From assembly GCA_965153455.1 (NCBI GenBank), contig OZ234493.1, forward strand, positions 992,001-1,056,000: 64,000 nt of DNA. The letters run 5' to 3'. The notes under the pieces are model-generated. The model had not been told where the DNA came from. It searched no databases and was given only the letters and a program-made list of their open reading frames with translations. Shown here in pieces: positions 2,861-64,000 of the stretch. The DNA is from Sphagnum compactum. Its lineage: Eukaryota. The stretch's first letter is position 1, and each line of letters begins with the position of its first letter. Both the position numbers and the translations under genes were made by a program.

Positions 2861-2956
2861 CGAGTGTAAATATATATTTTCCTATGTTAGATTTGATTGA
2901 TGTAATCAACGCATTAAGATGGATGTCAACATGATGAACAATGGAAAATTGTCGCA

Positions 2957-4187
2957 GGGCATACGCATGGTAAAACATGCTAGCCGAAGTCACTTGCTGT
3001 TTTTTGGACAGTATCCATAAAATATATTGTGATGTATAGAATCTAGGAATATTAATATAAGCCAGTGATCAACAATTATAAATTCTTTGACTTCATTGCA
3101 TAACATTGAAGAAACACATGTTTTAATATGCATTTAGGTATATATTTTTGAAGTGCAAGCATAAAAAGTACATGTCACAGCTTTGCAAAATTGAGTTACA
3201 AGTACATGAAAGTAAAACATCAATTAGAATTATTATACTTTCAAGTTGATGAACGCTTAGTGCGTATGGATATAGTTTCAACTTTTCATATTATAGTCAT
3301 AATCTATCAAAGTTTCAAAGTAAAAATATTTTGGAAAATTTGGACAACCAACCAATTTCAAACATACTTTTCATCCATTTTCCTTACATAAAAATTCCTC
3401 AAACTTTATGTACAACTTACAATAAACTCAATGAGGTGTTCAATGATTTCAAAAAGAAATTTAAATAGGTTTTTAAGGGTCCAAGCATGGTAAAGTATAC
3501 CAAAAAAGGAGTCTTAAATTAATTTAATTTCAAAAATAGTCTCTTCTCAACATTAACATTAAAAAAATATTAAAAACCTATTTAAATTTCATTTTGAAAT
3601 CATAGAGCACTTCATTGAATTTATTATAAGTTGTACATAAAGTTTTAGGAATTTCTATATAAGAAAATGGATGAAAATTATGTTATAAGTTGGTTGGTTT
3701 TTCAAAATTTTCAAGATACTTTTACATTGAAACTTTGATAGATTATGACTAGATAATGAAAAGTTAAAATCATTTTTATACATATTAGGTTTTCATCAAC
3801 TTGAAAGTATAATAATTTTAATTGATGTTTGTATTTTTATGTACTTGTAATTCAATTTTGCAGAATTGTGACATGATTTTTTGTATTTTCATTTCAAAAA
3901 AATGTACTTAAATGCATATTAAAACATTTTTTTCTTCAATATTATGCAATGAAGTCAAATGTTTTTTGATTTTTGATCATTGACTTAAATAATATTCATG
4001 GATTCAATACGTTAAAGTATATTTTATGCATACTTTCCAAAAAGATAGCAAGTGTTTCCAATTGGCATACTTTGCCATGCTTATGCCTTTAATATATGTT
4101 TTTAATGTTAATGTTGAAAAAAATTATTTTTGAAATTAAATTTTTTTAGAACTAACTTTTTGGCATACTTTTATCATGCTTGGACCT
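2957..4187 (+). mobile_element. Non-autonomous TIR element (GGG...CCC-type termini, 4-bp TSD; Sola-like), split by a second copy
   Basis: Left end GGGCATACGCATGGTAAAACATGC, right end GCATACTTTTATCATGCTTGGACCT. Flanks CGCA (2953-56) and TGCA (4188-91). No transposase ORF. Confidence 0.7.
3477..4088 (-). mobile_element. Second copy of the same element inserted in inverted orientation into the first
   Basis: Starts GGGTCCAAGCATGGTAAAGTATACC and ends GCATACTTTGCCATGCTTATGCCT, with TTAA on both sides. 3572-4087 is the reverse complement of 2957-3475, and 3477-3570 is the reverse complement of 4090-4187. Confidence 0.75.
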
Positions 4188-9957: not shown

Positions 9958-9970
9958 AGTTCTATTGCAG
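9958..9970 (+). promoter_or_regulatory. Probable 3' splice acceptor of a 5'-UTR intron, 4 nt before the TCP start codon
   Basis: GTTCTATTGCAG|TTAC ATG GAG matches the plant TGCAG acceptor consensus. The upstream donor was not identified. Confidence 0.45.
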
Positions 9971-9974
9971 TTAC

Positions 9975-11756
9975 ATGGAGTCAGGAGGGCATGGTAAATC
10001 TAAATCAGAGTCCCAGCGAGACACGGGTCAAGGTGGGGGAAGCTCAGACACGGGGTTGCCACCACAACTGATTCAACAGTATCAGCAAGCGGAGGCGAGG
10101 GGCTTAACAAGTTATGCAGGTTCTTCGTCGCGTTTAGAGCAGCAGCAGCAGCAGCAGCAACAACAACAACAACAACAACAGCATGATGCAGGGCCCTTGG
10201 CACAAGCTATGGCAGCAATGGGTGGTCAGGGTATGGGAAGAGCAGGGTCATCACAGGTGGATATGACATCTTTGGCTATGGCAGCTGGCTTGGGACGAGA
10301 GTACGCGGGCGTCGAAGGACAATCTAGTCGGGCTTCAATGGTCCACATGAGTGGCATGTCGTTAGCTCGCGGACAACAGCAGGAATCGAGCGCCGCAGCA
10401 GCTGGGACATCTGCAGAACCCATTACAGGGAAAAAACAAGCTCCCAAGCGTCCAGGATCAACGAAGGATCGCCATACTAAGGTTGACGGACGGGGTCGAC
10501 GCATACGGATGCCAGCTACTTGTGCAGCGCGCATTTTTCAGCTCACTCGTGAGTTGGGGCATAAGTCAGACGGAGAGACTATCCAGTGGTTGCTGCAGCA
10601 TGCTGAGGCTGCAATCATTGCCGCAACAGGAACAGGCACGGTTCCAGCTCTTTTCTCAACGGTAGTTGGACCAGTACGGAGCTCAGCGAGCATGCAGCCG
10701 GCAGCAGCAGCAGGTAGAGTTCCATTGCAAGCTGGCAGCTTAGGCTTCGCATCTGGAACTTCCAGGGCGCCCTCCGAGTTAGAGATTGCTAGCGCGCGCA
10801 TGCAAGAGCAAATGCGGGCTAGAGATACTGAATGGGGCATGTCAAGTGCGGCGGAGGAAAGAGGGACGGACGTATCGAGATCAGCAGTTATGGGGGTTAG
10901 CATGGGTGCCCTTGAAATGATGGGAGGCTTTCAGGCTCAAGAAGGTTTGCTGGGGTCACGTTCTTCGGAAACTGGGAAGGGTAGCATCGACACATCGAGG
11001 AAGAGACCTCGACCGGGTCCACTAACTCGTCTCAAGGAAGAAATAGAGCCTACAATGGCACTGCAGACATCACCAACCAGACAATTATCGCTGCAACAAG
11101 CTGGTGCTGGAGCAGCTGGTGGGTCGTCCAGCATGCAGATGCAGCCAGCAGCAATGTGGGCTGTAGCAGCTTCCGCTGTATCAGGAGTACCTAGTGGTAT
11201 GAGTGGTGGCATGCCTGGCACGGTTTGGATGCTACCAGTGAGCGCGAGCTCATCGACATCCGGGGTGATGCAGGCAGGCCCATCTGAGCAACACATTTGG
11301 TCATTCCCTTCAACCCCAGGCCAATATCGCATGGTTGCACCGGGAGGAACACCAGGCTTACAGCTAGGCCCACTAGGGGGTCCAGGAGGAGGTAATATTA
11401 TGCCATCTGCATCCATGATGGCACTCATGCCTCGGAGTAATGTACAAGGTGAGATGGGGTTAGAATTGCAGGGCAGCCTTATGCAAGGTCATCACATGTC
11501 ACTAGCTGCTCATGCAGGTTCTATGCAGTTACTGCAGCAACCAGATCAGATGCGGCAACTACGTGCTCATGCACCCGCTGGTTTCGGCCTGGGTGGAGGC
11601 ACGGATCAAGGACAGAATTTAGGGATGTTGGCAGCACTTGCATATAATCCTAATTTGCAGCAGAATCCTGATCAACAACAAAGGTCGATGCAGGGCTCAG
11701 GGCCTCATCTGCAACAACAAGGGGATAGTGGTGATGACCCAACTGGCTCTCAGTAG
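9975..11756 (+). CDS. TCP: Class I (PCF-type) TCP transcription factor, 593 aa, uninterrupted CDS
   Basis: TCP domain [62 protein letters not shown] is the class I signature (short basic region, AATGTGT tail). Low-complexity Q/G/S/A/M-rich flanks. The exact orthologue cannot be assigned. Confidence 0.97.
10140..10181 (+). repeat. (CAG)6(CAA)7CAG microsatellite encoding Q14 in the TCP N-terminus
   Basis: Read directly from the sequence. Confidence 0.95.
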
Positions 11757-31910: not shown

Positions 31911-32384
31911 TATTGGAAACAACTTGAAAACAAGCAAGAAATGCAACACTCAAGGTTCATGAAATGGAACAATTGTATTAACTAACAAGAAGATTACAAA
32001 GGTTGTATGCTTCAAATGCTACAATCATAAAACTATGGCTTGCAACAACTAATAAAGCTTGAAGGTTCTATGTGCACTCAACAACCATGAAAGGAAAGAA
32101 TGAAAGACAACTCAAAACCACTCCATTATATAATATCTTCTAACCCTAAAGTAGCCACCACTTAACCCTAACCTAGCCGCCACCAAACCCTAACCCTAGC
32201 CGCCACCAAACCCTAAACCTAGCCGCCGCCTAACCCTAACCCTAGCCGCTGCCAAACCCTAAGTAGTCTCCACTTCTAAACCATAACCTAACAACTACAA
32301 GGATGTGTATACTATTCATCCTTTTGATGAATGTTTAACACATTCATCAACATTGGGAATTAGAAACGAATAGTATTTCTAACA
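31911..32384 (-). repeat. 3' LTR of the copia element (474 bp)
   Basis: Direct repeat of 36886-37376. Minus-strand termini TGTTAG...CCAATA. Confidence 0.97.
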
Positions 32385-32394
32385 CTCCCACTCT
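32385..32394 (-). other. Polypurine tract of the copia element
   Basis: Minus strand AGAGTGGGAG abuts the 3' LTR and overlaps the pol stop codon. Confidence 0.85.
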
Positions 32395-35300
32395 ATGAAG
32401 TTTCTAATCCGAACATGTTTATCAACTTATGATGTCGTTCTTTAGATAATGCCTTAGTAAGGACATCCGCCACCATGTGTTCGGTTGTACAATATTCAAA
32501 TCGAACTTCTCCATTTTCAACTCGTTCTCGAACAAAATGATGTTGTACATCAATGTGTTTTGTTCGTGCATGGTGAGTGGGATTCTTGGTCAATGATATC
32601 GCACCTTGATTGTCGCATCGAATCACCATCATTTTCTTCTCCTCCATGTATCCTAAATCCATCATCAATTTTGTTATCCATATGGCTTCTTTTGTGGCTT
32701 GCGTGTTCGCCATGTATTCCACCTCCGTGGTGGACAATGCTATTGTGGGTTGTCGTTTGCTACTCCAAGAAATTGCTCCACCTCCAATCATGAAAACAAA
32801 CCCTGTGGTGGACCTCCTATCTTCAAGATCACCACCCCAATCCGCATCACAATATCCAAGAACTTCCTTGGATGGTGTTCCACCAAATTGTAATTTCATT
32901 TGCAATGTACCTTGCAAATATCGAAAGATTCGTTTGACGGCCATCCAATGCTCCATGTTAGGGTTCGCCATGTGTTGACTCAACACGCTTATTGGGTATG
33001 CCAAGTCGGGTCGTGTGCATAACATGGCATACATCAAAGACCCAACCGCTTGTTGATATGGAAATCCCTTTGATTCATCATTTCCATTCGCATTCCTTTG
33101 TAACTTCACCTTGGGATCCAATGGAACTCCAATGGGCTTACATTCCTCCATTCGAAACCGCTTCAATATTTCCTTGAGGTATTTGATTTGGTTGATGCGT
33201 AGGAGTCTTTCATCACGATTCCTTTCCGCCTCCATCCCCAAAAAGAAATGCAACTCCCCGAGGTCCTTCATTTCAAACTTTTGACTCAATTGCTCTTTGA
33301 TTTGTAAAAGTTTGTTCTGATCGTTGCACACCAAAATGAGGTCGTCCACATAGACCACAATGAAAAACTTCACATCTCCCACTTGTGCAACGTACACACT
33401 AGGATCCGCCTCACTCTTGATAAATTCAATGTTTTTGAGAAACGCATCTAACTTTTGATTCCATGCCCTTGGAGATTGTTTCAAACCATACAAGGACTTG
33501 TGAAGCTTACACACGAGATGTTCACCTCCTTGGTGCACGAACCCTTGAGGTTGCTCCATGTAAATCTCCTCTTCAAGCTCGCCATTGAAAAATGCGGTTT
33601 TCACGTCCATTTGATGGATCTCCATGTCTTCCAAGGCCGCCAATGCAAGAATACAACGAATAGATGCAAATTTTGCGACCGGCGCAAAAGTTTCGTTGTA
33701 ATCCACTCCGTAGGTTTGGGTAAAACCTCTTGCTACTAATCTAGCCTTGTAGCGTTCCACTTCCCCATTTGCGCCTTGTTTGATTTTGAACACCCATTTG
33801 CAAGAAACGGGTTTCCTACCGGCGGGAAGTGGTACCAAAGTCCATGTGTTGTTTGTCATGAGGGAAGCATATTCTTCTCGCATCGCACACTCCCACTCCT
33901 TGGAATTTTCACATGTCAATGCTTCTTCAATATTTTGGGGCTCCTCCAAAAATGCAACGGTGGCGCGCTCCACCTCTTTGGTAGCAATCCACCAATCCCG
34001 AGGCCATTCCCTTCGTTGCCTTTGAGGTCTTTCCCTCGCAATATCTTGTGAAGGTTCACAAGATGGGTTGTCATTGGAAACAACAAATTCCTCTTCCGAT
34101 GAAGAACTTGGTGTGGATTCACTTTGCACACCTTCCATTCTTGTTTCACTCAAAGGTCTATCTTGACTAAAGGCCAATGGTTCTTCTCCCTCAACTTCTT
34201 CATGCACAACTACATTTTCTTCTCTCTCAAGATGAGGTACAGCACCTATTTCCTTTGACCCTTCAATGAACACAACATCTCTACTTTTGATGATTCTCTT
34301 GGTTTTCACACACATCAAGCGATACGCTTTGGTGCCTTCGTAATATCCTAAAAACACACAAGGCATGGACTTGGACTCTAATTTGGTCCTCTTCTCATCG
34401 GGGACGTGTGCAAAGGCTTTACAACCAAAAACTCTCAAATGGGACACATCGGGTTTCCTACCACTCCACGCTTCTTGAGGGGTCTTGGAATCAAGAGCCT
34501 TGGTTGGACATCGATTTTTGATGTACACTGCCGTGTTCACCGCTTCGCCCCAAAATTCAAGTTCCAACCCTCGTGCAAGAATCATGCTTCTTGCACATTC
34601 CATGATGGTTCTATTGGCACGTTCCGCAACACCGTTTTGTTGTGGGGAATAGGGCGCACTTGTTTGTCGTTGAATTCCACATTCCGCAAGAAATGCGTCA
34701 AATTTCTTAGACACAAATTCTCCTCCGTTGTCGGAACGTAGCACTTTGATTTTGTGACCAATTTCGTTATCCACCAAGGCCTTGTATTGTTTGAACTTTT
34801 CAAACGCTTCTCCTTTGGCCTTCAAAAGATAGACATGAGTTTTCCTTGAGACATCGTCAATGAAAGTGAGAAAGTATCGCGCTCCACCATGCGATGTAGT
34901 CTTCATTGGCCCGCACACATCGGTGTGCACAATCTCCAAAAGTTGTGAAGCCCTCGTTGCTCCGTCCTTGGGAAATGATGTTCTTTGATGTTTGCCTTTG
35001 ACGCATCCTTCACAAATGTGATGCAACGGCACTTCTTTCAAATTCATGCCATCCACCATGGCATCTAACTCCTTAAGGCTTGCCATGTTGAGATGGCCAA
35101 GTCTTTCATGCCAAAGCATCGCACTTTCCTCCAAAGAATTTGCAATGTGTGCCATGTCCTTACGCACCTTCACATTAAGAAGGTACAAGTTCTTGTCCCT
35201 TCGTGCTTGCGCCACAACAACTCCTCGAGCATCGTTGACCTTACAACCATCCTTGTCAAACTCCACTTTGAAACCTTCCGAAATGAGTTTGCTCACCGAA

Positions 35301-36307
35301 ATTAGATTATTCTTCATTTTTGGAACATGAAGAACTTGGGTGATGGTTGTGTGTGTCAATTTGCCTCCCACTTGCATTGTGGCTTTGATGCTCCCCTTGC
35401 CAATGGCCTCCAAAACGGTGTCATCGCCCATGAACACCCTCCTTGGGGAAATGCGCTCGTACGTGGTAAACCATTCTTGTTCGAATGTCATGTGTTGCGT
35501 TGCACCCGAATCGACAATCCAATCATACATGGTATGATCATTGGCATTCAATGCCGCAACAAACATTTGTTCGTGATCTTCACAAGCTTGATTAACTTTT
35601 TCTTTTTCATCATTTTTCTTCTTCAAACAATTTCTCACAAAATGTCCGGGTTTCTTACAATAAAAGCAAAGTTTCTCATTTGGCTTGTGAGTTTTGTTCA
35701 CTAATGCGGTAGTCTCGGAATTCTCACATTCTTTTCTTTTGGACACTTCGTGAAGCAACCTTGCTACAACGAATTGAAGGTCTACATCTTTCGTGGACAT
35801 GGACTCCAAGCTTGTGACTAAGTTATCAAAGGATGGAGGAAGGCTCATGAGGAGTACCATGTAAACATCTTCATCCGTAATGTTCACCTCGATGGAACGT
35901 AGTTGGTCCGCAAGGGCTTTCACCGTGTTGATGTGCACAAGCATGTCATCTCCTTCTTGCATTTTGATGGTGAAGAATCTCCTTCGAAGGAACAACTTGT
36001 TGCCAATGGTCTTAGCTTCATGCACACCACAAAGAGCCTCCCACGCACTTCTCACATTGTCACAATATTGAATGTGTGCAAGTTGGGCATCCGTGAGATG
36101 TTCGCAAAGCAATGCAAAAGCCTTGGTCCCTTTTTCGTTGTAATCGGCCCTTGCAACTTCTTCACTTGGCAAGGTGGCACTCCCATCAACAAATTTCCAA
36201 AGCCCATGTTTGGAAAGCATCATGCGCATTTTGAACTTCCAAAGGTGAAAGTTGCCACCATCAAACTTCTCCATGACTTTCAAGGACTCCATTTGAAAAG
36301 AAGACAT
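32393..36307 (-). CDS. Copia Gag-Pol polyprotein, 1304 aa from the first ATG
   Basis: Zinc knuckle CFYCKKPGHFVRNC, protease WIVDSGA, integrase WHERLGH...CEGC with HTD/RSDNGGE/NGVAE, RT QMDVKTAF/YGLKQ/YVDD, and RNase H DADW...KHID. No internal stops. Confidence 0.97.
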   Translation of the reverse strand: MSSFQMESLKVMEKFDGGNFHLWKFKMRMMLSKHGLWKFVDGSATLPSEEVARADYNEKGTKAFALLCEHLTDAQLAHIQYCDNVRSAWEALCGVHEAKTIGNKLFLRRRFFTIKMQEGDDMLVHINTVKALADQLRSIEVNITDEDVYMVLLMSLPPSFDNLVTSLESMSTKDVDLQFVVARLLHEVSKRKECENSETTALVNKTHKPNEKLCFYCKKPGHFVRNCLKKKNDEKEKVNQACEDHEQMFVAALNANDHTMYDWIVDSGATQHMTFEQEWFTTYERISPRRVFMGDDTVLEAIGKGSIKATMQVGGKLTHTTITQVLHVPKMKNNLISVSKLISEGFKVEFDKDGCKVNDARGVVVAQARRDKNLYLLNVKVRKDMAHIANSLEESAMLWHERLGHLNMASLKELDAMVDGMNLKEVPLHHICEGCVKGKHQRTSFPKDGATRASQLLEIVHTDVCGPMKTTSHGGARYFLTFIDDVSRKTHVYLLKAKGEAFEKFKQYKALVDNEIGHKIKVLRSDNGGEFVSKKFDAFLAECGIQRQTSAPYSPQQNGVAERANRTIMECARSMILARGLELEFWGEAVNTAVYIKNRCPTKALDSKTPQEAWSGRKPDVSHLRVFGCKAFAHVPDEKRTKLESKSMPCVFLGYYEGTKAYRLMCVKTKRIIKSRDVVFIEGSKEIGAVPHLEREENVVVHEEVEGEEPLAFSQDRPLSETRMEGVQSESTPSSSSEEEFVVSNDNPSCEPSQDIARERPQRQRREWPRDWWIATKEVERATVAFLEEPQNIEEALTCENSKEWECAMREEYASLMTNNTWTLVPLPAGRKPVSCKWVFKIKQGANGEVERYKARLVARGFTQTYGVDYNETFAPVAKFASIRCILALAALEDMEIHQMDVKTAFFNGELEEEIYMEQPQGFVHQGGEHLVCKLHKSLYGLKQSPRAWNQKLDAFLKNIEFIKSEADPSVYVAQVGDVKFFIVVYVDDLILVCNDQNKLLQIKEQLSQKFEMKDLGELHFFLGMEAERNRDERLLRINQIKYLKEILKRFRMEECKPIGVPLDPKVKLQRNANGNDESKGFPYQQAVGSLMYAMLCTRPDLAYPISVLSQHMANPNMEHWMAVKRIFRYLQGTLQMKLQFGGTPSKEVLGYCDADWGGDLEDRRSTTGFVFMIGGGAISWSSKRQPTIALSTTEVEYMANTQATKEAIWITKLMMDLGYMEEKKMMVIRCDNQGAISLTKNPTHHARTKHIDVQHHFVRERVENGEVRFEYCTTEHMVADVLTKALSKERHHKLINMFGLETS

Positions 36308-36871
36308 TTTGAACACAAATGCTACAACAAACACTCTCAAACTTGAAAGTTGAAGTTTTCAACAACTAAAAGAACTATCTTCCAAACACTTTCACTTGGA
36401 AAACCTTGATACTTTCAAAAACAAGTTTTTCACACTTGAAAAACTTACAACACCTTGAAGAAATCTCTTCCACACCTCTCACTCACTTGTAAGACTATTC
36501 TCTTTGCAACCTTGCAAACTAAAAGCCTTCCCTCAAAAGGATTCTCCCTTTCAATGTTGTACAAGCAAACACTTTCAAAAAACTTAAACGAAACAAGTTT
36601 CCTAAAAACCTTTACAAGAAACTTGAAAAACTTTTCTTACACCTCAAACTTCAATGTTGGAAACCTCAAAAACTTGAAGAACTCTCTTTCACACTTTTGA
36701 ACTTCAAACTTGAAACTTAACGACTTGAAGAACACTCTTCCAAACTTAAGAACTTACAACACTTTGAAGAAGTCTCTTCCACAAAAGGATTCTCTCATTT
36801 TTCCTATGCAATACAAGCTCAAACCTTTCACTACTTCTTGTTCTAACACAATGTCCTTTCTCTTGCTTGGT

Positions 36872-36885
36872 GTGGGCCCATAACC
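36872..36885 (-). other. Primer-binding site complementary to the anticodon-arm region of initiator tRNA-Met (half-tRNA primer)
   Basis: Minus strand GGTTATGGGCCCAC directly follows the 5' LTR. The + strand GTGGGCCCATAACC matches, from memory, the tRNA-iMet anticodon stem-loop rather than the 3' CCA end. Confidence 0.9.
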
Positions 36886-37376
36886 TATTGGAAACAACTT
36901 GAAAACAAGCAAGAAATGCAACACTCAAGGTTCATGAAATGGAACAATTGTATTAACTAACAAGAAGATTACAAAGGTTGTATGCTTCAAATGCTACAAT
37001 CATAAAACTATGGCTTGCAACAACTAACAAAGCTTGAAGGTTCTATGTGCACTCAACAACCATGAAAGGAAAGAATGAAAGACAACTCAAAACCACTCCA
37101 TTATATAATATCTTCTAACCTTAAAGTAGCCACCACTTAACCCTAACCTAGCCGCCACCAAACCCTAACCCTAGCCGCCGCCTAACCCTAGCCGCCACCA
37201 AACCCTAAACCTAGCCGCCGCCTAACCCTAACCCTAGCCGCCGCCAAACCCTAAGTAGTCTCCACTTCTAAACCATAACCTAACAACTACAAGGATGTGT
37301 ATACTATTCATCCTTTTGATGAATGTTTAACACATTCATCAACATTGGGAATTAGAAACGAATAGTATTTCTAACA
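36886..37376 (-). repeat. 5' LTR of the copia element (491 bp)
   Basis: By eye it differs from the 3' LTR by 3 C/T substitutions and one extra 17-bp unit in the U3 repeat array. TATATAA on the minus strand at about 37107-37101. Confidence 0.97.
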
Positions 37377-55384: not shown

Positions 55385-55590
55385 GGAACGTTTCATCGAA
55401 CAATAGTGCAATCGTCAAACATCAGTGCATCTCATCAAACAATAATGCATTTCACCAAATAACAGATTATTATGCTAAATCGAGTAGCAGTGCACTTCGT
55501 CGAACAACAATACATCCTATTGAACAATAGCACATTGTGCCAAATCGAACAATAACACATCTCGTTGAGTAGCAAAGCATTGCGCCAAAC
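55385..55590. repeat. Degenerate about 20-bp minisatellite
   Basis: Repeated variants of TGCATTTCGTCGAACAATAG. Confidence 0.55.
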
Positions 55591-56250
55591 CAATTTGTAA
55601 CCATTAACCAACAACCACTAAATGGTTATTGTCCACAACACACAACACCACACAATGAGTCACAACAGTCCTGTATCCTACAAATTACAATGAAATGCAT
55701 AAGTGTTCTAAAATTCCTGTCTAGGAATAGCAACATCATTCCAACAAATCGATTTGAAACCTGTAATTGCCAACCAATAAAATTGTGCATTGCCATACAA
55801 TATGACGCGCTCCTTGGTCCCGGGGTGAACCCACTTGAGGGTTCACTAATGTGAAGTTGCGGAAAGTTGGGACCGAAGGGCACGCTCTCGACTTCCAACT
55901 CTAGAAAGGGGTAGAGGGTCAAGTTGGAAGCCCCGGGATTAAACTAGGAAGAGGGACTAGCTTAGCTTGTGTGAATCTGCATCCAAAAACCAACCACAAG
56001 AGGTTAGTTTAGCATTCAGGACACCCTTGGGTGTTGGGACAAGCCACGGGCACTTGGACACACAAGACTCACCACGGCCCGGACTCAAGGGAAGCCACCA
56101 CCTTCCCCCTTTTAGTATTCTCTACAGCTCGCCACATACTCTGCGGCTTGCCGCAGAAAACGGCGTTCGCTCTCGGTGCACGTATCAGAGAGGAACGTAG
56201 CTCTAGACCCTGAATGTCAGATTTCTTGATGTTTTCTTGAGCGCTTTTTG

Positions 56251-59154
56251 ATGGTGAAGATGAATATCCACTCAGAGTTGGAAGATCTTCAAATCTCCAA
56301 GCTCAATGAGTTCTTTCTCGTCGCTGATAGAATACGGAAGGCGGGCCGCAGCGCGCGGCAAGGGTTTGGAAAATTCAAAAGCAAAACGAACCCTAACGGT
56401 GGCGGCGCTCACCTCTTCGTTCCATCAAGCGACAAGAATATTCCTCCCACCAACGAATCATTCACTTCAGCTGCTCCGCCAGTGTTGTGTTTTCGCGCTC
56501 CTCTCTCTGAACCAAGCGATTCTCCTCATGGAATTTTGCTAAGCAAAGATGAGAGAAAAGTGATCCGAGCACCGGAAGTCCCGGCCGCACCCAGTAGCTC
56601 GACAAGATGTTCCGATCCAGCTCGGAGAGCGCAAGCAACCTCAGAAAGGAGCGATGGAGGAGCTCGAGAAGGTCACCGCCATTGGTCACCTCCGGAGATC
56701 CTCCTCCCGGACATCCCGACGCAAGCTTCTTTGGGCGCGGACGAGGCATTAGGCAAATCCTCTACTCCCCAAGTACTCTCCTCTCAATCCCCCATACTCC
56801 CTCGTTTCTCAGAATCCGTTTTTGCGCTCGTTGTGGAAAAACTGGATCAGGGAAACCGGGGAGCCACCGCCGCAAGGCAAGTGGCAAGAGAGGATACCTC
56901 GGCAGCTCGAGCGAAGGATCCAATCGAGAAGAACAACAAAAGAGCATCGAGAAAGAAGCCGAGCTCTCACACAACGGCTCCTCCTCCAAATCCGACTCTG
57001 ATCGTGCACGCAAGCAGCGGACCAGGAAAAACTTCTCCCATGAGAGAAGAAACCCAAGGCCCATCGCCGGTGGACTACAGCTTGGAGCTCGAGGCGGAAT
57101 TCCCGAAAGAAATGGTGGTCGAGATGCAAGGAAACGCGGCAAGGAAGGCACACAGGACCGTCATTGGACAAATGTTGGGAGGAAGAGCGTCCTTCAAGGA
57201 ACTCCACGAGTGCCTGAAGCTCCACCTCCCGGCTACTTACAGCTCAACAACGCTCTTAACAAGAGGTTTCTTCTTGATCTACTTTGAGAACGAAGACGGA
57301 GCCACCCAAGCCAGGAAGCTCGCGTCCGTGGAGTGGAACGGACTCAGCATATCGTTCTCAAGATATAATCCAAACTTCGACGTTAACGCCTAAGGAGCGG
57401 AAGCGCTCTTCACGTACACAATCAAGGTACAGTTCCCGGACTTGCACGAGCAGTTCAGAAATGAAAAAGCGCTCACCATAATGGCGAGCAAGCTTGGAGA
57501 GGTGTTCGACATAGAAGCACCTGACTCCTACATGAAGAGGCCCGCCGGACCAATGGTCACGATCGAGGTAAGAGACATCGCCAAGCTGGCGGGTTATATC
57601 AAGATTCCATCCATCGCGGAGGGAGCCTCAACCACGGATATGATCCGCTAAAGCATTCTATACTCAGGCCTCCCGAATCAATGCCGAAAATGCCGAAGGT
57701 TCTGACATCAAGCCCGAACGTGCAACATCGCAAGAAGCAAAGCGCAGGCAGGAGCGACACAGCACAACTCCTACCCAAGCGTGACAGATGGCGGATAGCC
57801 AAGTGAGCGCCAAGCACTCTGAAAAGTGGCACGCGAGAGAGCGCAAGGCCCCACACCGGCACCGACATCGGCACACGTTCCGCAAACCTTGGGAAGATCC
57901 CAAGAGCGTGCAGAAATCAGGAATCCGTGGAATCATACCACGGCCCCACCTCCACCGACAGATTTGCCACGGACCCACTAAAGCAATCAGGCATCTGGCA
58001 CACGCCATCGGAACTCAATGACCGAAGCTCAGACGGACCTGAGAATGTCAGAATCCCCGACATCTATAAGACGGGCAGAGGGCGAGACTCGGGCGGAAAT
58101 CAAAAATCCACCGGAGGAAGCCACGACACCCAAAAACAAACTCTCCTTCGGGCTACCCGGGCTCAACGATGCACAAGTTCAGAAGACGGGAGCCAACACA
58201 AACCCTTTTGCCAGCTCGAAGGAAGAGAACCAAAGGGCGGACCGGAGCACCAAGCCTCAAGAGGACGAGTTGGAAGGATGGTCCTTCCAAGGACGAAGGA
58301 AGCATGCCCCCAAACTCGCTTCACCCAGGCCGGAAACGCAATAAACTTTGCCTCGTACCCCTCAGCAAGACACAACGCCGGGAGGCAAAAGATCCTAGCC
58401 ACACTCAGAGGTACACCCCTCCTTTTTCTCCTCACTTGGCATGTTAATTCCAACCAATGGCGAACCCTTTAGAGCCAGAATCTGGCCGGTTCTGGTTAGG
58501 GAGAAGAACGCTCAGAAAGAGACATTGGTGCACTCCAAGAACCAGAACCGACCAAGCCTCCCGATCAGCATGAGAATCACGGGATCATCCGAGGTCATTT
58601 GGACTCAAGACTCGGCTTGGGCGGACCTTATCCAACGACTGGAAACGGAGTTGGAAGAGAAAGTTCTAAGATACAGGTTGACGCTTCGAGACCGGCCTCA
58701 GCTCGAATGGAGCTGGCAAAAAGAGTCAAGTAGAGGTGGGATGGAATGCACTATTCTAGCCCACATCGACTCCGGATCCAACGCCCTCAGCGTCCAAAAT
58801 AAACGCCACTTGCATTGGAAAGCCCTGGATAGCACCCAAGGAATGAGCAATGAGATGGACTTCTCAGCTCATGCACACAATTTGCTGATGAAGGCTGAAG
58901 CGACGATCTCGGAGCATCAGGAAATCAAAAATCGCTCAGCCAGCATTCAAGCATTACCCCAGGCGGCGAGAAAGAAGCGCTACACTAAGCTCAACCTCAA
59001 CTTCATGGACCCGCCGCGGGTGGACAACGACGGCCACGGTAATCCGGACCAAGAAAAAGAAGACGGCTCCCAAGAGAGCCTAGAAAAAGACGCATCAAAA
59101 GAACCGGGATCGATCGGCCCCAAGGCCGCCCGAAATCGTCTCACATATGTTTGA
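56251..59154 (+). pseudogene. LINE ORF1 (about 967 aa): DUF4283/RRM-like region plus zinc knuckle plus long C-terminal extension
   Basis: One reading frame throughout with at least 8 in-frame stops. Contains TLLTRGFFLIYFE, IMASKLGEV and YSGLPNQCRKCRRF*HQARTC. Confidence 0.85.
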
Positions 59155-62100
59155 AAGACCTCTCACGATGGCCTCCCTCAACGTCAGGGGGCTGAGGGGG
59201 GACTCCCCCAAACCGAAGGAGATCAAGGCATGGATCGCCGCGCTCTCCTCCCCCCCTCAAGTCCTTCTAATCCAAGAGCATCATCTAGGAAAAGAAGGCA
59301 TCCAGAAAGTTGCAAAGGGGCTAGAGTTCTGGAAAGGTACCGCGTTGTGGAATGAGGGCATCCCCATGGGACGCTCGCAAAGAATTAGTGCCGGGACGGC
59401 AATTCTAGTTGATAGAGCGACCTCCCCGCTAATCAAAGACCATGGCACAATAATGGAAGGACGCGCCCAATACGTCTCGCTCCAATCTCCAGAGGGGGGA
59501 ACCCTAACCATAATCAACGTCTACGCTCAGCGCTCCTCAAATGATAGGGCCCCTCTTTGGCGAAGCATCACTCAGGCGGACTTCACAGCGGACCATGTAG
59601 TAGTTGGAGGAGACTTCAACCACCTTGAAGAAACCACTCGACGGGGAGTATTCGGCGAGAGGCAAATTCATAGGCGCGAAGCTGCCTCATGGCACCAAAT
59701 GACATTACGCTATGGCCTGGCGGATGCCTGGAAGCTGGACAGCTTTAGGAAGATGTCAAAGAAGAACTTCACCTTTGACAATGGCAGATCCGGAGCCTTC
59801 TCGGCTGTGTCCAGGATAGACAAATTCCTAGTATCTCAGGACATAGAGGAGAGAAGGGGCAGAATAGAGGCCGCGGCCTCCATTAGGAAGCTCTCAGACC
59901 ATTCTCCGCTCATAATCACATTTTGGGGCCTCCATCCCCCTATAACCAACCCTTCGCGCTTCTTTGATGCAACCTTGCTAAGCGAGGAGGATCACAAAAC
60001 CGAGCTGTTAAACGCTTGGTCCGGTGATTCGTCGCACCCCACCAACGGTCGGGACTGGGCAGAATGGCTTGAGGCGGCAATGAAGACAGTAAACCAATGC
60101 AACGCGCGCTTGGCGAAAGAAAAAAGACGTGCCCACGGGACACGTGTCAGGACGTGCGCAAAGAAGATCTAGCTGGCGGAAATAGAGCTACAAAAAGATC
60201 CCACCAACGTGGAAGTAAAAGGCATACTATCGGATGCCCAAGGGAAGCTGGCGGAAATCTTCCAAGCATCCATGGTGCGCAACCGGCACCTCACCTCAGC
60301 CACTTGACTCAGGTACGGTGACACGTGCTCTAAAACCTTCTTTGATTTCCATCGCATAGGAACAAAGAAAACCTTGATGAGGGAACTAGTATCAGACATG
60401 GGTACCATAATCGGTCAACTAGACCTCACCCACCACGTCACAAACTTCTACTCTCGGCTTTACACCTCGGAAGCCAGCAACGCCGGCACCGCCGAGGCCC
60501 AGGAGACGTGCTGGCAAAGCGTCCCAAACAAGGTCTCAGAAGGTGTGAACGCAAGACTGATAAGTCGACTCACCCTAGAGGAGGTGCACAGGGCCATCCG
60601 AGCCTTGCCGAAAGGCAAAGCGCTGGGTCACGATGGCATACCCATGGAATTTTTCCATGAATGTGAACAAAAGATCGCACCGGACCTCTTGCAAGCATTC
60701 ACGGCAATGCTCAACGAGGGTGCCACCTCACCTTTCATCAACAAATGAGTCATCACTTTTATTCCGAAATCTGGGGACCGCTCCAGACTCAACAACTGGA
60801 GGCCTATAACGCTCCTTGGCAGCGTATACAAAATTCTGGCCAAGATTCTCGCCGGAAGACTCCAAGCGGCCCTCCCGAACATCATCAGACCCAACCAAAC
60901 TGGCTTTGTGGAATGGAGATCAATCCTAGACAACGTCTTCATGCCGCAAGAGGCGCTAGGCTGGGCTGAAGAAAGCAACCAAGATCTAGTTCTCCTTTTG
61001 CTAGACTTTGAGAAAGCATTCAACCGGATCGAATGGAACTTTTTGTTCACCGCACTAGAAAAGCTCGGATTCGACGACACTTGGATCCGCTGGGTGAAAT
61101 CGCTCTACAAAGAGGCAACATCATCCATCAAGATGAATGGAGAGCTAGGGCCGGTCTTCCAGCTGGCCAAATCAGTTAGACAAGGATGCCCCTTGGCACC
61201 CTATCTATTTATTCTTGCCACGGACGTGTTGGGTTACTTGTTGGCCGACCCCAGGTATGAGGTAGAAGGCCTCTCCCTCCCGAAAGGCGGCCTCATCAGA
61301 GACCAGACCTTCGCGGATGATACGGCTCTCTATCTAAAAGGGACTCCCGCCAATTTAGACAAGGCTCCAAGGGTACTTAAGGTATTCAGCTCGGCATCAG
61401 GCGCGAAAGTAAATTGGCATAAGTCGGCGGCCATTTGGGCAAGCAAGAATGCTCGGACCTGGCAATGAGGAACCGACGTAGGACTCAAATGGGTCCCGGA
61501 CGGGGAAGGTATTAGATACCTCGGAGTACAAGTAGGCTCCCATCTCCCTCCAGAGGCGAATTTCGACAAGATGATGGCGGCCCTAAAAAGCAAATTAATA
61601 AATTGGAGTCATAACCAACTGTCCCTGGCCGGAAGGATCTTGGTTGCCAACCAGGTCCTCCTGGCCTCTATGTGGTACATTGCCGCGTGTTGGAACCCCA
61701 ACCCACGCATGACCACGCAGATTAGAGGGGTAGTCAAGAACTTCATATGGGGGGGAAAGGACGCGCCAGCATGCGCCAAAGTCAAATGGGACACTTTGAC
61801 GCTCCCGACCACCCAAGGGGGGCTCGGGATCATTGATCCAAAAGCTCAATCCGAGGCCCTCTTGGCCAAACTGCTGATCAAAAGGCTCTCCCCGGGAGGA
61901 GAGCCTTGGAAAAAACTCATCCGACACAAGGCCGACCAAATACGGCTCCCCGTCCACAGCAAGGGACCCAACATTCCGGACGTCAATTGGATCTTCGTCG
62001 CGCCAAAGGTTAAAAGGATTCCGTGCTCAATATGGAAGAGTATAATTGGAGCTTGGATGAAAGTGAGGTCCGGACTAAGCAAGGCAGAACCGTCCAACAT

Positions 62101-63505
62101 CGTGAAAATTTACAGGCAACCAATATTCGGCAACCCTTTAATTCTAAGCGAAAGCGGAATTCCGCTAGGCCTCGGGGGATGGAGGGACGGGAGCGCCTTT
62201 GCGAGAGCCGGCTGCTCCCGAACAAAGGATCTCTGGAACCAGAGAGCTCAAACCTGGAAAAGCCTCGGAGAGCTCGGAATGAGCTATCATACTTCGAACA
62301 GACAATGTAAAGAAGCGATCATCGCCAGCATCCCTTGGCGGCTGGACGAAAGCCCCAACACTCCGAAGGAAGGAGACTAGATAAGCAACCCCTCCCCCTC
62401 CTCAGGAGCTCCCCTCGACTGGATCTATTTCGTGCTCAACGCATCCCGGGGCCAAGCCAAAGTCATCGAATTCAAAAGAAACGCCCACAACGGACGAATT
62501 CAAGCCTCCACTGACCAGGTGATCACCATCGCCACTGGCAACCTTCTTCCGGTCAGAATCCTAGAGCAAGAAAACCACGGGGCTTCCTTCAAAATCGCCA
62601 AGGAGCTAAAGACACCTAGCAAGAAGACCCCAATCTTCTGGATTTTCGAGACCGGCTTTATCCAAGATCTTCCCTGGGATCCGAGGGAATGGCATTGGCG
62701 GACCTCCTCGCCGCTAGGAGATGCGCCCTTCTTCGGATACACCGCCAAAAGAGGATACATCAACGCGCGGAGCTCCTCACACACCCCGCACATGATCACC
62801 TTCATCCAAAGCCTCAACCTTCGGAACACCTCAACCCAGCAAGCCATTGCCAGAATTTGGCACAGCGCTCGCCCAAGGAAAGTGAGCACCCTCATATGGC
62901 TCACCCTCAACCAAGGCTTACCAGTCGGCTCATGGCTCAAAATCATGGGGCTCCCCCCTCATTGCAAAGTTTGCAACTCGGGCGCTGAAGAGACCCCGCA
63001 GCACTGCTTCCTTGACTGCCCAAGAGCCCAAACCGCTTGGAAAGCTTATAAACGAATCTGGGCCGAGTGGAATTCCGTCCAGAACTTCGCTACTACCTGG
63101 CCTTTTGTGCTCCTCGGGGAAATTATCGCGGAACACGAAGATGACCCCCCCGGCCTCCTCGCGTACCACACCGGAGGCTTCACTTATCTCCGCCAACCTT
63201 TAGACATCCTTCGTAGTTTCATCCTCTACCACCTTTGGTCGGAAAGATGTAGGAAACACTTCGATGATCAATACTCTTTTCGCAAAGTCCTGATTAATGC
63301 CTAGGTGGCGACGGTGGAGGTCAGTATGGCCACCTGGAAGGCCATTAGATCTCACCGTCCGGCCAAGGACCGAGATATTCAGAGTAGAATTGAGCTTGCC
63401 TTTAGAAAAGTATGGCTGCATAAGAACATTCTCGGGACGGATAATGCCACCATTAGGTGGCACTACCTCCCCCCCTTGTACTTCCTTATTTACTCTAATG
63501 TTTGA
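59147..63505 (+). pseudogene. LINE ORF2 (about 1452 aa): APE endonuclease, reverse transcriptase, zf-RVT
   Basis: One frame with 6 in-frame stops. EN motifs SLNVRGL, IQEH, GDFN, SRID and SDH. RT motifs WRPITLL, LDFEKAF, RQGCPLAP, FADD and RYLG. C-terminal CKVC...ETPQHCFLDC. Confidence 0.93.
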
Positions 63506-64000
63506 TGGGGCTGCTGCCTCCCTCCCCGTAAGGAGTTCACCCTGCAGCTCGCCACGGAGGCTACATCCAAATGGCACATTTTCTTGGGACTCCTGAAATG
63601 GAGTCCCGAAACTGTCCCGGCGGGACTCCCAAAACTTTGAGCGGCCATAACTCCCGACTCCGGAGTTTGATCGCAACAAGGTCTAAACCAAAGTTGTAGC
63701 CCTCGTCAAGATCTTTCCAACGCCATGTCGCACTCTCTGAGACGACGTCGGGAAAGAGTCGATTTCCGACTTTTAGTGGTCGGGAGTCAAACTGCCAGTT
63801 TGACTCCCGGCCCTTCTTTTGCCCATAACATGAGCTGCAGATGTCCGAATGGCCAATGCGAGGCCATTTTTGATATCTACATTTCAAGACCTTTCCAATG
63901 TCACAAAGAACACCTCAAGGCGAGGTGTTTTGGGCCTTGCTGTTGCGCTCTAAACATTCGGGAGTCCCGGGGGACTCCAAACCTCCAACTTTTCCAAGTG

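Follow-up and report, generated by a model that had tools for sequence, protein, structure and literature searches.

In this report, we examine a long interspersed nuclear element (LINE) that occupies positions 56136-63541 on the plus strand of a 64,000-nucleotide stretch of Sphagnum compactum DNA (contig OZ234493.1 of GenBank assembly GCA_965153455.1, positions 992,001 to 1,056,000 of the forward strand), hereafter called the window and numbered from its first letter. The element is 7,406 bp long, decayed, and embedded in a very high-copy long terminal repeat (LTR). We consider it very likely that the family to which it belongs has a strong preference for a single sequence within a Ty3/gypsy chromovirus LTR, and that a 19-mer at the 5' end of the window copy, with five further bases behind it, is flanking sequence brought along from the donor. 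Independent insertions of this family share one nucleotide position, one orientation (antisense to the LTR) and a fixed stagger of 14 bp. An earlier interpretation of the window made from its letters alone (the sequence-only reading) had proposed homing of this kind, and we follow its main claims here through related loci, sequencing reads and domain searches.

The preferred position in the LTR

The left junction of the window copy reads, in order, ...TTTTAGTATTCT, the left target site duplication (TSD) CTACAGCTCGCCAC, the 19-mer ATACTCTGCGGCTTGCCGC, the five bases AGAAA and the canonical LINE start ACGGCGTT..., and the right junction runs from the LINE end ...GGAGTTCACC through the right TSD CTGCAGCTCGCCAC into GGAGG.... 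The two 14-bp TSD copies lie on the plus strand at 56122-56135 and 63542-63555 and are identical at 13 of 14 positions. A LINE seated in an LTR, with a 14-bp TSD and neither a poly(A) nor a simple-repeat tail, had been described from the letters alone, and all of these features were confirmed at the junctions.

The sequence-only reading had further predicted that other copies would join the same LTR site at their 3' ends. Metagenome contigs were scanned with the C-terminal 307 residues of open reading frame 2 (ORF2), yielding 80 loci at 47-82% amino acid identity, many of them the same locus recovered from several samples; because this query contains no flank, the sample is blind to the insertion site. 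LINE 3' ends were extrapolated from BLAST alignments and junctions were kept if at least 15 nt of flank followed, which left 63 usable 3' junctions falling into 40 distinct clusters. As predicted, 22 of the 40 clusters lie at the identical LTR nucleotide, where the LINE end ...GGGGTTCAC[C/T] is followed by [C/T]TG......CC.C GG..CTACATCCAAATGG.... One subfamily among the site-bound clusters has the LINE end ...GGGGTTC[T/C]. Two further clusters, both from one locus (L022/L028-30), sit at a transduced copy of the site inside another LINE. When 40 copies are placed in a tree by their last 900 nt, site-bound copies occur in all main clades, with 9-10 changes of state, and 13 of the 14 rows in the clade of the window copy (support 99) are at the site. 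The preference of the family, as these junctions place it, is thus strong, not absolute.

Probable donor sequence at the LINE 5' end

The 19-mer (56136-56154, plus strand) is LTR-type sequence at the 5' end of the LINE and consists of ATACT followed by a TSD-like 14-mer. Against the local target at 56117-56135 it matches at 14 of 19 positions, or 15 of 19 when the right-hand TSD is used, and the two segments are colinear and end at the same base, exactly as had first been noticed. Five extra bases, AGAAA (56155-56159, plus strand; 5' ends aligned by eye), separate it from the canonical start and may be filler from the 5' junction of the donor. The full-length copies L001 and L010/L011 start directly after their left TSDs, with GCGGCGTT... 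and GCGCGCGA..., respectively, which align with ACGGCGTT at 56160; since these copies begin at the canonical 5' end, the window LINE carries 24 extra nucleotides, namely the 19-mer and AGAAA. The ATACT portion is an exact, common variant of the LTR, present in L009, L013/15/16, L031 and contigs of the window's own species. Furthermore, 4-5 of the 19 positions of the 19-mer depart from the local target, against 1 of 14 between the two copies of the local TSD, a pair of the same age.

The empty state of the site was examined by mapping two contig sets, one raw DNA run (X13) and one RNA run of the window's species on 55500-64000 at 80% likeness. Raw DNA depth, with both read directions summed, is 0.57 in the unique stretch 55500-55783, rises to ~530 at 55784-56067 and ~440 at 63736-64000, and is ~2-17 across the LINE, reaching 27 in its last full bin; by these depths the flanks are a repeat hundreds of times commoner than the LINE family. 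The 7420 bases between 56121 and 63542 are skipped by 146 DNA reads and 204 RNA reads, which join the two positions directly. All hold a single 14-mer, reading CTGCAG..., showing that the LTR does not of itself contain the tandem 19-mer, and empty LTR copies in related loci likewise lack it. A tandem already present in empty LTRs, which would have spoken for a local duplication within the LTR itself, is therefore absent from both sources.

Other members of the family carry 5' extensions of their own. In L005/L074 a 12-nt extension is identical to the copy's own perfect TSD at 6 of 12 positions and to an LTR variant in contigs of the window's species at 10 of 12 (by inspection). The locus L022/L028/L030 holds a far longer one: an outer 14-bp TSD, [T/C]TGATGATGGACAA, encloses, in this order, a leader of ~172 nt, a 5'-truncated LINE (LINE A), CTGCGACTCGTCGC, and a full-length LINE (LINE B). 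The leader is colinear with the last ~100 nt of the left LTR part and ends exactly ...TATAGTACTCT + CTGTGACTCGTCGC, with an alignment score of 58 against a maximum of 43 in 200 shuffles. The arrangement would have arisen in two steps, in which LINE B, with ~172 nt of LTR flank from its donor attached to its 5' end, inserted off-site, and LINE A later entered the site that LINE B had brought, again with a 14-bp duplication. On this alignment, the locus shows that the family transduces LTR flank at its 5' end. It also shows, by the position of LINE A, that the left flank and the 14-mer suffice for recognition away from right-hand LTR sequence and LTR context: as the moved flank of ~172 nt and its 14-mer were struck again, insertion does not need what lies to the right of the duplication. 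The locus can be regarded as a natural transplant experiment, in which at most ~190 bp sufficed as a target.

The absence of the 19-mer from L001 and L010, its greater divergence than that of the TSD pair, the ATACT variant and the leader of ~172 nt together support the reading of the 19-mer as the flank of a donor LINE, resident at this site of a diverged LTR copy, which passed it on through 5' transduction. The carry-over from a donor locus that had been proposed from the letters alone is thereby strengthened, both by the canonical 5' ends that begin directly after the TSD and by the leader in L022/L028/L030.

An unlikely alternative leaves the family site-specific and derives the 19-mer from its immediate surroundings, as a local duplication (through template switching or a 19-bp stagger) or as the scar of an aborted event, mutated since. 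In its favour, the 19-mer runs colinear with its local counterpart to the same final base, the search for an exact donor sequence gave none, and an old copy with many C>T changes should have diverged somewhat since it inserted. However, 4-5 differences in 19 nt would have to have accumulated beside 1 in 14 in a TSD pair of equal age; three of the changes would be A>G, two of these (by inspection) creating CpG; the unrelated AGAAA stands between the 19-mer and the canonical start; and relatives bear non-local LTR flank, of 12 nt and ~172 nt, in the same place.

The loci L079 (positions 2900-3020) and L080 represent a more remote LINE subfamily that has a poly-C stretch close to its 3' end. The sequence TATATGGATAACTCT upstream of its 5' untranslated region resembles the TATAGTA[C/T]TCT part of the LTR target, and may be a 5' leader that was taken from the target long ago and became fixed.

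Host LTR, target recognition and independence of the insertions

The repeat that received the LINE lies on the minus strand. Its left part (55803-56121) comprises, on the sense strand of the LTR, the TATA box, R and U5 and ends ...CA at 55803, at a sharp high-copy boundary; its right part (63556-64000) is upstream U3 on the LTR strand and leaves the window, with ~42 more bases suggested by relatives. Homologous LTR copies all share the start TGACGC... at the point equivalent to 55803, are preceded by unrelated sequence and end ...GACA; the end ...GCGACA is seen in L026, L037 and L040. Solo LTRs are flanked by 5-bp TSDs (TAGTG in L015, AGTAG in L021). In L071, the LINE 3' end is followed by the right LTR part ending ...GGGGTTGCAACA and then by CTCTCCCCCAC, the reverse complement of a polypurine tract, beyond which minus-strand ORFs encode, in order, a chromodomain with an integrase SH3 domain, reverse transcriptase/RNase H and a protease (Chromo, E 4e-13; SH3_Tf2-1; RT_RNaseH; RVP_2). 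By its TG...CA ends, the 5-bp TSDs, the polypurine tract and the minus-strand domains of L071, the host repeat is a Ty3/gypsy chromovirus LTR of ~820-910 bp, opposite in orientation to the LINE. The read consensus left of 55803 contains GCTCTGATACCA (agreement 0.47, 386 reads), which we take to be the 3' end of plant initiator tRNA-Met, so that the primer-binding site would be on the minus strand; no primer-binding-site motif adjoining an LTR was found in the 80 loci.

Three junctions of another kind were met in the same loci. At L026:462, L037:839 and L040:818 the chromovirus LTR end (...GCGACA) abuts internal LINE sequence, at three different LINE positions. These are best read as chromovirus insertions into older LINEs, meaning that the two families nest both ways, and they were not counted as LINE target sites. 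Loose ends in Hi-C (chromosome conformation capture) data at 55960, 63591 and 63803 consist of GATC joined to AT-rich DNA and are library ligation junctions, not structural variants.

Written on the strand of the LTR, the target reads ...GTGGCGAGCTGCAG, the LINE position, and then AGAATACTATA[A/T]GGGGGAAGGTGGTGGCTTCCC.... The TATA-like motif (56110-56117, minus strand) is TTTTAGTA in the window and TATAGTA in most other copies, giving TACTATAAG or TACTATATG in the sense direction; its first T is 8 nt from the LINE nick site, and its position suggests a promoter role. The LINE site thus falls in U3, 7 nt upstream of the LTR TATA box, with the LINE antisense. The sequence-only reading had placed the insertion about 20 bp from a TATA-like box; its account is corrected here in strand, since the LTR lies on the opposite one. 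Its suggestion that the LINE might borrow the LTR promoter found no support: because the LTR is opposite in strand, the LINE cannot use the sense promoter of the LTR. Borrowing through the plus-strand TATA motif, from whose first T (in TATAGTA) the canonical LINE start is 26 nt downstream, was likewise rejected, since all three 5' extensions start at or upstream of the motif. That the insertion may disable the LTR promoter, as had also been suggested, is plausible.

The best-conserved stretch among LTR copies is the 28 nt to the left of the nick, GGGAAGCCACCACCTTCCCCC.TATAGTATTCT, with a mean majority frequency of 0.88 at -20 to -1 versus 0.69 in the TSD 14-mer (a comparison drawn from 20 distinct rows, one of which is a spurious anchor in a LINE tail). 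This bears on the question of what is recognized. Instead of reading DNA sequence, the LINE machinery might be drawn to the LTR core promoter through tethering, either to a protein such as a TATA-bound complex or to a chromatin state such as open chromatin; the 7-nt distance to the TATA box, in the most conserved and promoter-like part of the LTR, and the variation of the sequence within the TSD among the LTR copies hit would both suit such tethering. We nevertheless find it quite improbable, given the nucleotide precision and constant 14-bp stagger in all seven site events for which both junctions are available, and given that the transduced site inside a LINE, away from any LTR, was struck at the same base. 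Moreover, the two off-site insertions with visible TSDs, L066 (15 bp) and LINE B (14 bp), also begin CTG, which points to a DNA-level preference in nicking or priming. By inspection, CTG or TTG likewise opens most of the off-site 3' flanks.

The seven copies with both junctions are the window copy, L001, L005/74, L010/11, L013/15/16, L059 and LINE A of L022, and each has a 14-bp TSD. The left and right TSDs agree on average at 12.9 of 14 positions within a copy versus 9.6 of 14 between copies, CTGTGCCTTTCCAC, TTGCAACGCTCCGC and CTGTAGCTCTCTGC being examples of 14-mers that differ from copy to copy, and among 5040 permutations of left and right TSDs none does as well as the true pairing. The 5' truncation points vary as well (truncated copies are L013/15/16, L059 and LINE A of L022). 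Since the TSDs match within copies and differ between them, the insertions are independent. A single ancestral insertion, after which the LINE-bearing LTR was multiplied by chromovirus replication or segmental duplication, is accordingly very unlikely. The LTR family is extremely abundant, and an insertion in the U3 of a 3' LTR, as in L071, could in principle be copied into both progeny LTRs; yet such multiplication is contradicted by the TSD pairing, by the differing truncation points, by LINEs of different clades in near-identical LTR subfamily flanks (L006, L037, L062), by the event in a transduced site outside any LTR, and by off-site copies that have TSDs of their own and show that the LINE moves by itself. 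That the 14/19 resemblance at the 5' end is mere chance or the microhomology of a few bases often seen at LINE 5' junctions, and uninformative on targets, is hardly credible, since, with the register fixed, at least 14 of 19 positions would match with a probability of 1.2e-5 (p=0.25) or 1.1e-4 (p=0.30), the resemblance runs 5 nt past the TSD into a known LTR variant, and the same-site copies that it predicted were found.

Several observations weigh against a family bound to one LTR site and against a donor origin of the 19-mer. Across the family the target is not used nearly exclusively, for 16 of the 40 junction clusters lie elsewhere, in unrelated flank, two of them with uncertain ends (poly-C tail), and one subclade of 4 rows is entirely off-site; the homing to one LTR site put forward by the sequence-only reading is supported as a strong preference, by the 22 clusters at the identical nucleotide and the 2 at its transduced copy. 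The thresholds that gave 40 clusters were of our own choosing, and orthologous loci may be counted among the clusters. The chief weakness is the origin of the census: all evidence on multiple copies was drawn from metagenome contigs, belonging to related organisms at ~70-88% nucleotide identity, and the window's own genome contributes only the one copy seen and an indirect trace of its donor. Every copy examined is degenerate. As for the 19-mer, the LTR subfamily expected to match it exactly did not appear, the best match in the loci and (by inspection) in contigs of the window's species being 15 of 19, and the 12-mer of L005/L074 makes a weak case when taken alone.

A mechanism consistent with the site preference and the donor flank can be proposed. 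The endonuclease, or the ORF2 protein possibly through an unrecognised domain, would recognise the conserved left flank, and the sense strand of the LTR would be nicked after ...CTGCAG, with cDNA synthesis primed there. Priming may be aided by CTG/CAG microhomology, through CUG/CAG pairing with the RNA end, and the pairing might be longer if a read-through transcript of an LTR-resident donor served as template. The other strand would be cut 14 bp away. Where transcription of the donor had begun slightly upstream of the element, flank would be carried into the 5' end of the new copy. For the LTR that is hit, the upstream U3 is split from the core promoter by 7.4 kb, which likely should weaken a hit 5' LTR; for the LINE, the likely gain is a harmless landing site present in many copies.

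A bolder scenario goes beyond the site preference itself and seems to us possible but rather doubtful. Here, the LINE lineage would be a long-standing hyperparasite of one chromovirus lineage, whose ORF2 protein reads a conserved core promoter of ~30 bp that the host element cannot easily change, whose antisense insertion 7 nt before the TATA box cuts U3 off from the promoter and so silences the LTR, and whose 5' transduction sometimes spreads working landing sites, on which further copies build LINE arrays. If true, this would be the first sequence-specific LINE described in land plants and a natural system of one transposable element (TE) against another, and it would offer a compact, programmable-looking integrase for a defined plant sequence.

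The LINE, its relatives and other features of the window

The LINE body (56160-63541, plus strand) extends from the canonical 5' end ACGGCGTT... to the 3' end ...GGAGTTCACC, its coding capacity broken by stops and frameshifts, and 56163-63541 aligns with L005/L074 at 80% identity. Neither a second copy of the LINE nor one of its flanks was detected within the window by repeat search and self-BLAST. An ORF1 remnant (56230-57393, plus strand) has no Pfam match in the window copy; in relatives ORF1 is longer and matches DUF4283 (E 8e-8 in L010, 2.8e-5 in L005) and, weakly, zf-CCHC (E 0.087 and 0.95, respectively). Three plus-strand pieces of ORF2 follow, with an apurinic/apyrimidinic (AP)-type endonuclease domain at 59084-60172 (Exo_endo_phos, E 1.4e-9), a reverse transcriptase domain at 60749-61468 (RVT_1, E 3.3e-33) and a C-terminal zf-RVT zinc-binding domain at 62381-63304 (E 5.6e-14). 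Between the ORF1 domains and the endonuclease, at 57400-59080, no Pfam family was matched in the window, L005 or L010; this interval and its counterparts in L005 and L010, ~1.4-1.7 kb of conserved LINE sequence covering ~470 residues, are a candidate for a module so far unrecognised, possibly a DNA-binding one. The presence of Exo_endo_phos and RVT_1, TSDs, variable 5' truncation and a lack of terminal repeats make the element an AP endonuclease (APE)-type LINE.

At its 3' end, the LINE has a conserved tail (63496-63541, plus strand), TCTAATG.TTGATGGGGCTG.TGCCTCCCTCCCC-loop-GGGGTTCAC[C/T], without poly(A). Among 37 aligned tails mean column identity is 76%, and a poly(A) ending occurs in none of them, nor in the window LINE. 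The predicted 3' hairpin shows compensatory change in 0 of 7 pairs and is thus without covariation support.

At dozens of positions where every read and contig of the family shows C or G, the window LINE instead carries T or A, and 60170, the first base of a stop codon, is among the T>C / A>G differences of the reads from the window copy. Judged by these differences, the window LINE is an old copy marked by C>T decay, and the pattern fits methylation-driven C>T decay. RNA reads of 95-99% likeness span the whole LINE, and other family members therefore appear to be transcribed. The reads of RNA run X14 cover both LTR and LINE with the first mate mostly on the minus strand; as LTR and LINE lie on opposite strands, this bias is not taken as evidence of which of the two is transcribed in sense or of any transcription start.

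DUF4283 and CCHC in ORF1 together with zf-RVT at the end of ORF2 are typical of land-plant L1 elements, and the domain content here (DUF4283 in the ORF1 of relatives, zf-RVT at the ORF2 end) points to plant L1. An affinity with the Tx1 clade had been suggested from the letters alone; nothing seen indicates Tx1, and the same two domains speak for plant L1 instead. An atlas search returned only unnamed zf-RVT clusters of mixed taxa and gave no information on clade or taxon. Tx1 is described as grouping with vertebrate L1 (the F lineage), apart from a monophyletic land-plant L1 (PMC3472496, PMC3747384). Most plant L1 elements are said there to end in poly(A) (PMC3472496), whereas the present family lacks it. 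A stringent-type L1 lineage of monocots has a conserved, structured 3' end (Ohshima 2012, PMC3472496), and target specificity is not mentioned in that paper's passages on the lineage. The family described here resembles it in having a conserved, specific 3' end, seen in 37 copies and without poly(A), and differs in that no compensatory base pair supports a 3' hairpin.

Sequence-specific LINEs are known mainly from animals and protists, in ribosomal DNA, small-RNA genes, telomeres, microsatellites and a Xenopus DNA transposon. The last of these is functionally the closest case: Tx1L of Xenopus laevis is an APE LINE with sequence-specific insertion into another TE, as here. It differs in that its target is the DNA transposon Tx1D rather than a chromovirus LTR in a plant host, and the present family is leaky by comparison, with the off-site junctions counted above (16/40). 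The insertion of Tx1L in Tx1D is cited as an example of TEs that prefer other TEs (PMC6719617). A review lists early-branching, R1 and Tx1 lineages as target-specific LINE groups, with Tx1 and R1 as the APE-type ones (PMC4640811). Specificity within an AP-type endonuclease has precedents in Tx1L (PMC6719617) and in R1Bm, whose APE-type endonuclease domain is reported to cut both target strands sequence-specifically (PMC1919474).

The arthropod elements R1 and R2 are similar in inserting with nucleotide precision in a conserved multi-copy target; they differ in that this target is the rRNA gene and not a transposon, in that R2 uses a restriction-like endonuclease, and in that the LINE here is antisense to the transcription unit of its target. 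Transcripts of R1 and R2 can carry target sequence at their ends, their donors sitting in the same target, which parallels the LTR-derived 5' extensions seen here. In the 5' transduction of mammalian L1, an upstream transcription start adds donor flank to the 5' end of the progeny, comparable to the extensions of 19(+5), 12 and ~172 nt in this family. Unlike in L1, the transduced piece is here a copy of the target, and in one locus it became a new landing site, for which we know of no L1 case. Within the green lineage, ZeppL at Chlamydomonas centromeres is described as an L1-type LINE with a strongly non-random genomic niche, a regional association compared with a single nucleotide position in an LTR. 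In Physcomitrium, some transcripts antisense to annotated TEs are reported to have proved to be LINEs (PMC7466625), which is what antisense LINEs nested in LTRs would produce.

No published description of a plant LINE targeting an LTR was found in the full-text literature, a coverage that does not extend to subscription journals and Repbase reports. A plant L1-type family with one LTR position would be a fourth independent origin of specificity in the L1 group, and a clean natural case of one class of retrotransposon parasitising another at its promoter. It would also account for LINE sequence turning up in antisense within plant LTR elements as annotated, a possible source of error in TE annotation and in studies of expression. 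Target recognition is directly testable with oligonucleotides and of possible interest for tools of site-specific retroelement insertion.

Elsewhere in the window, an apparently intact Ty1/copia element lies on the minus strand at 31911-37376, with two LTRs of ~480 bp that are 99% identical and ~4.98 kb apart from start to start. It has a single open gag-pol frame of 1320 residues with Retrotran_gag_2, rve and RVT_2 domains, and is probably a recent insertion. Finally, a GC-rich open frame of 598 residues at 9960-11753 contains a TCP transcription-factor domain (E 2.6e-28), TCP being a plant-specific transcription-factor family.

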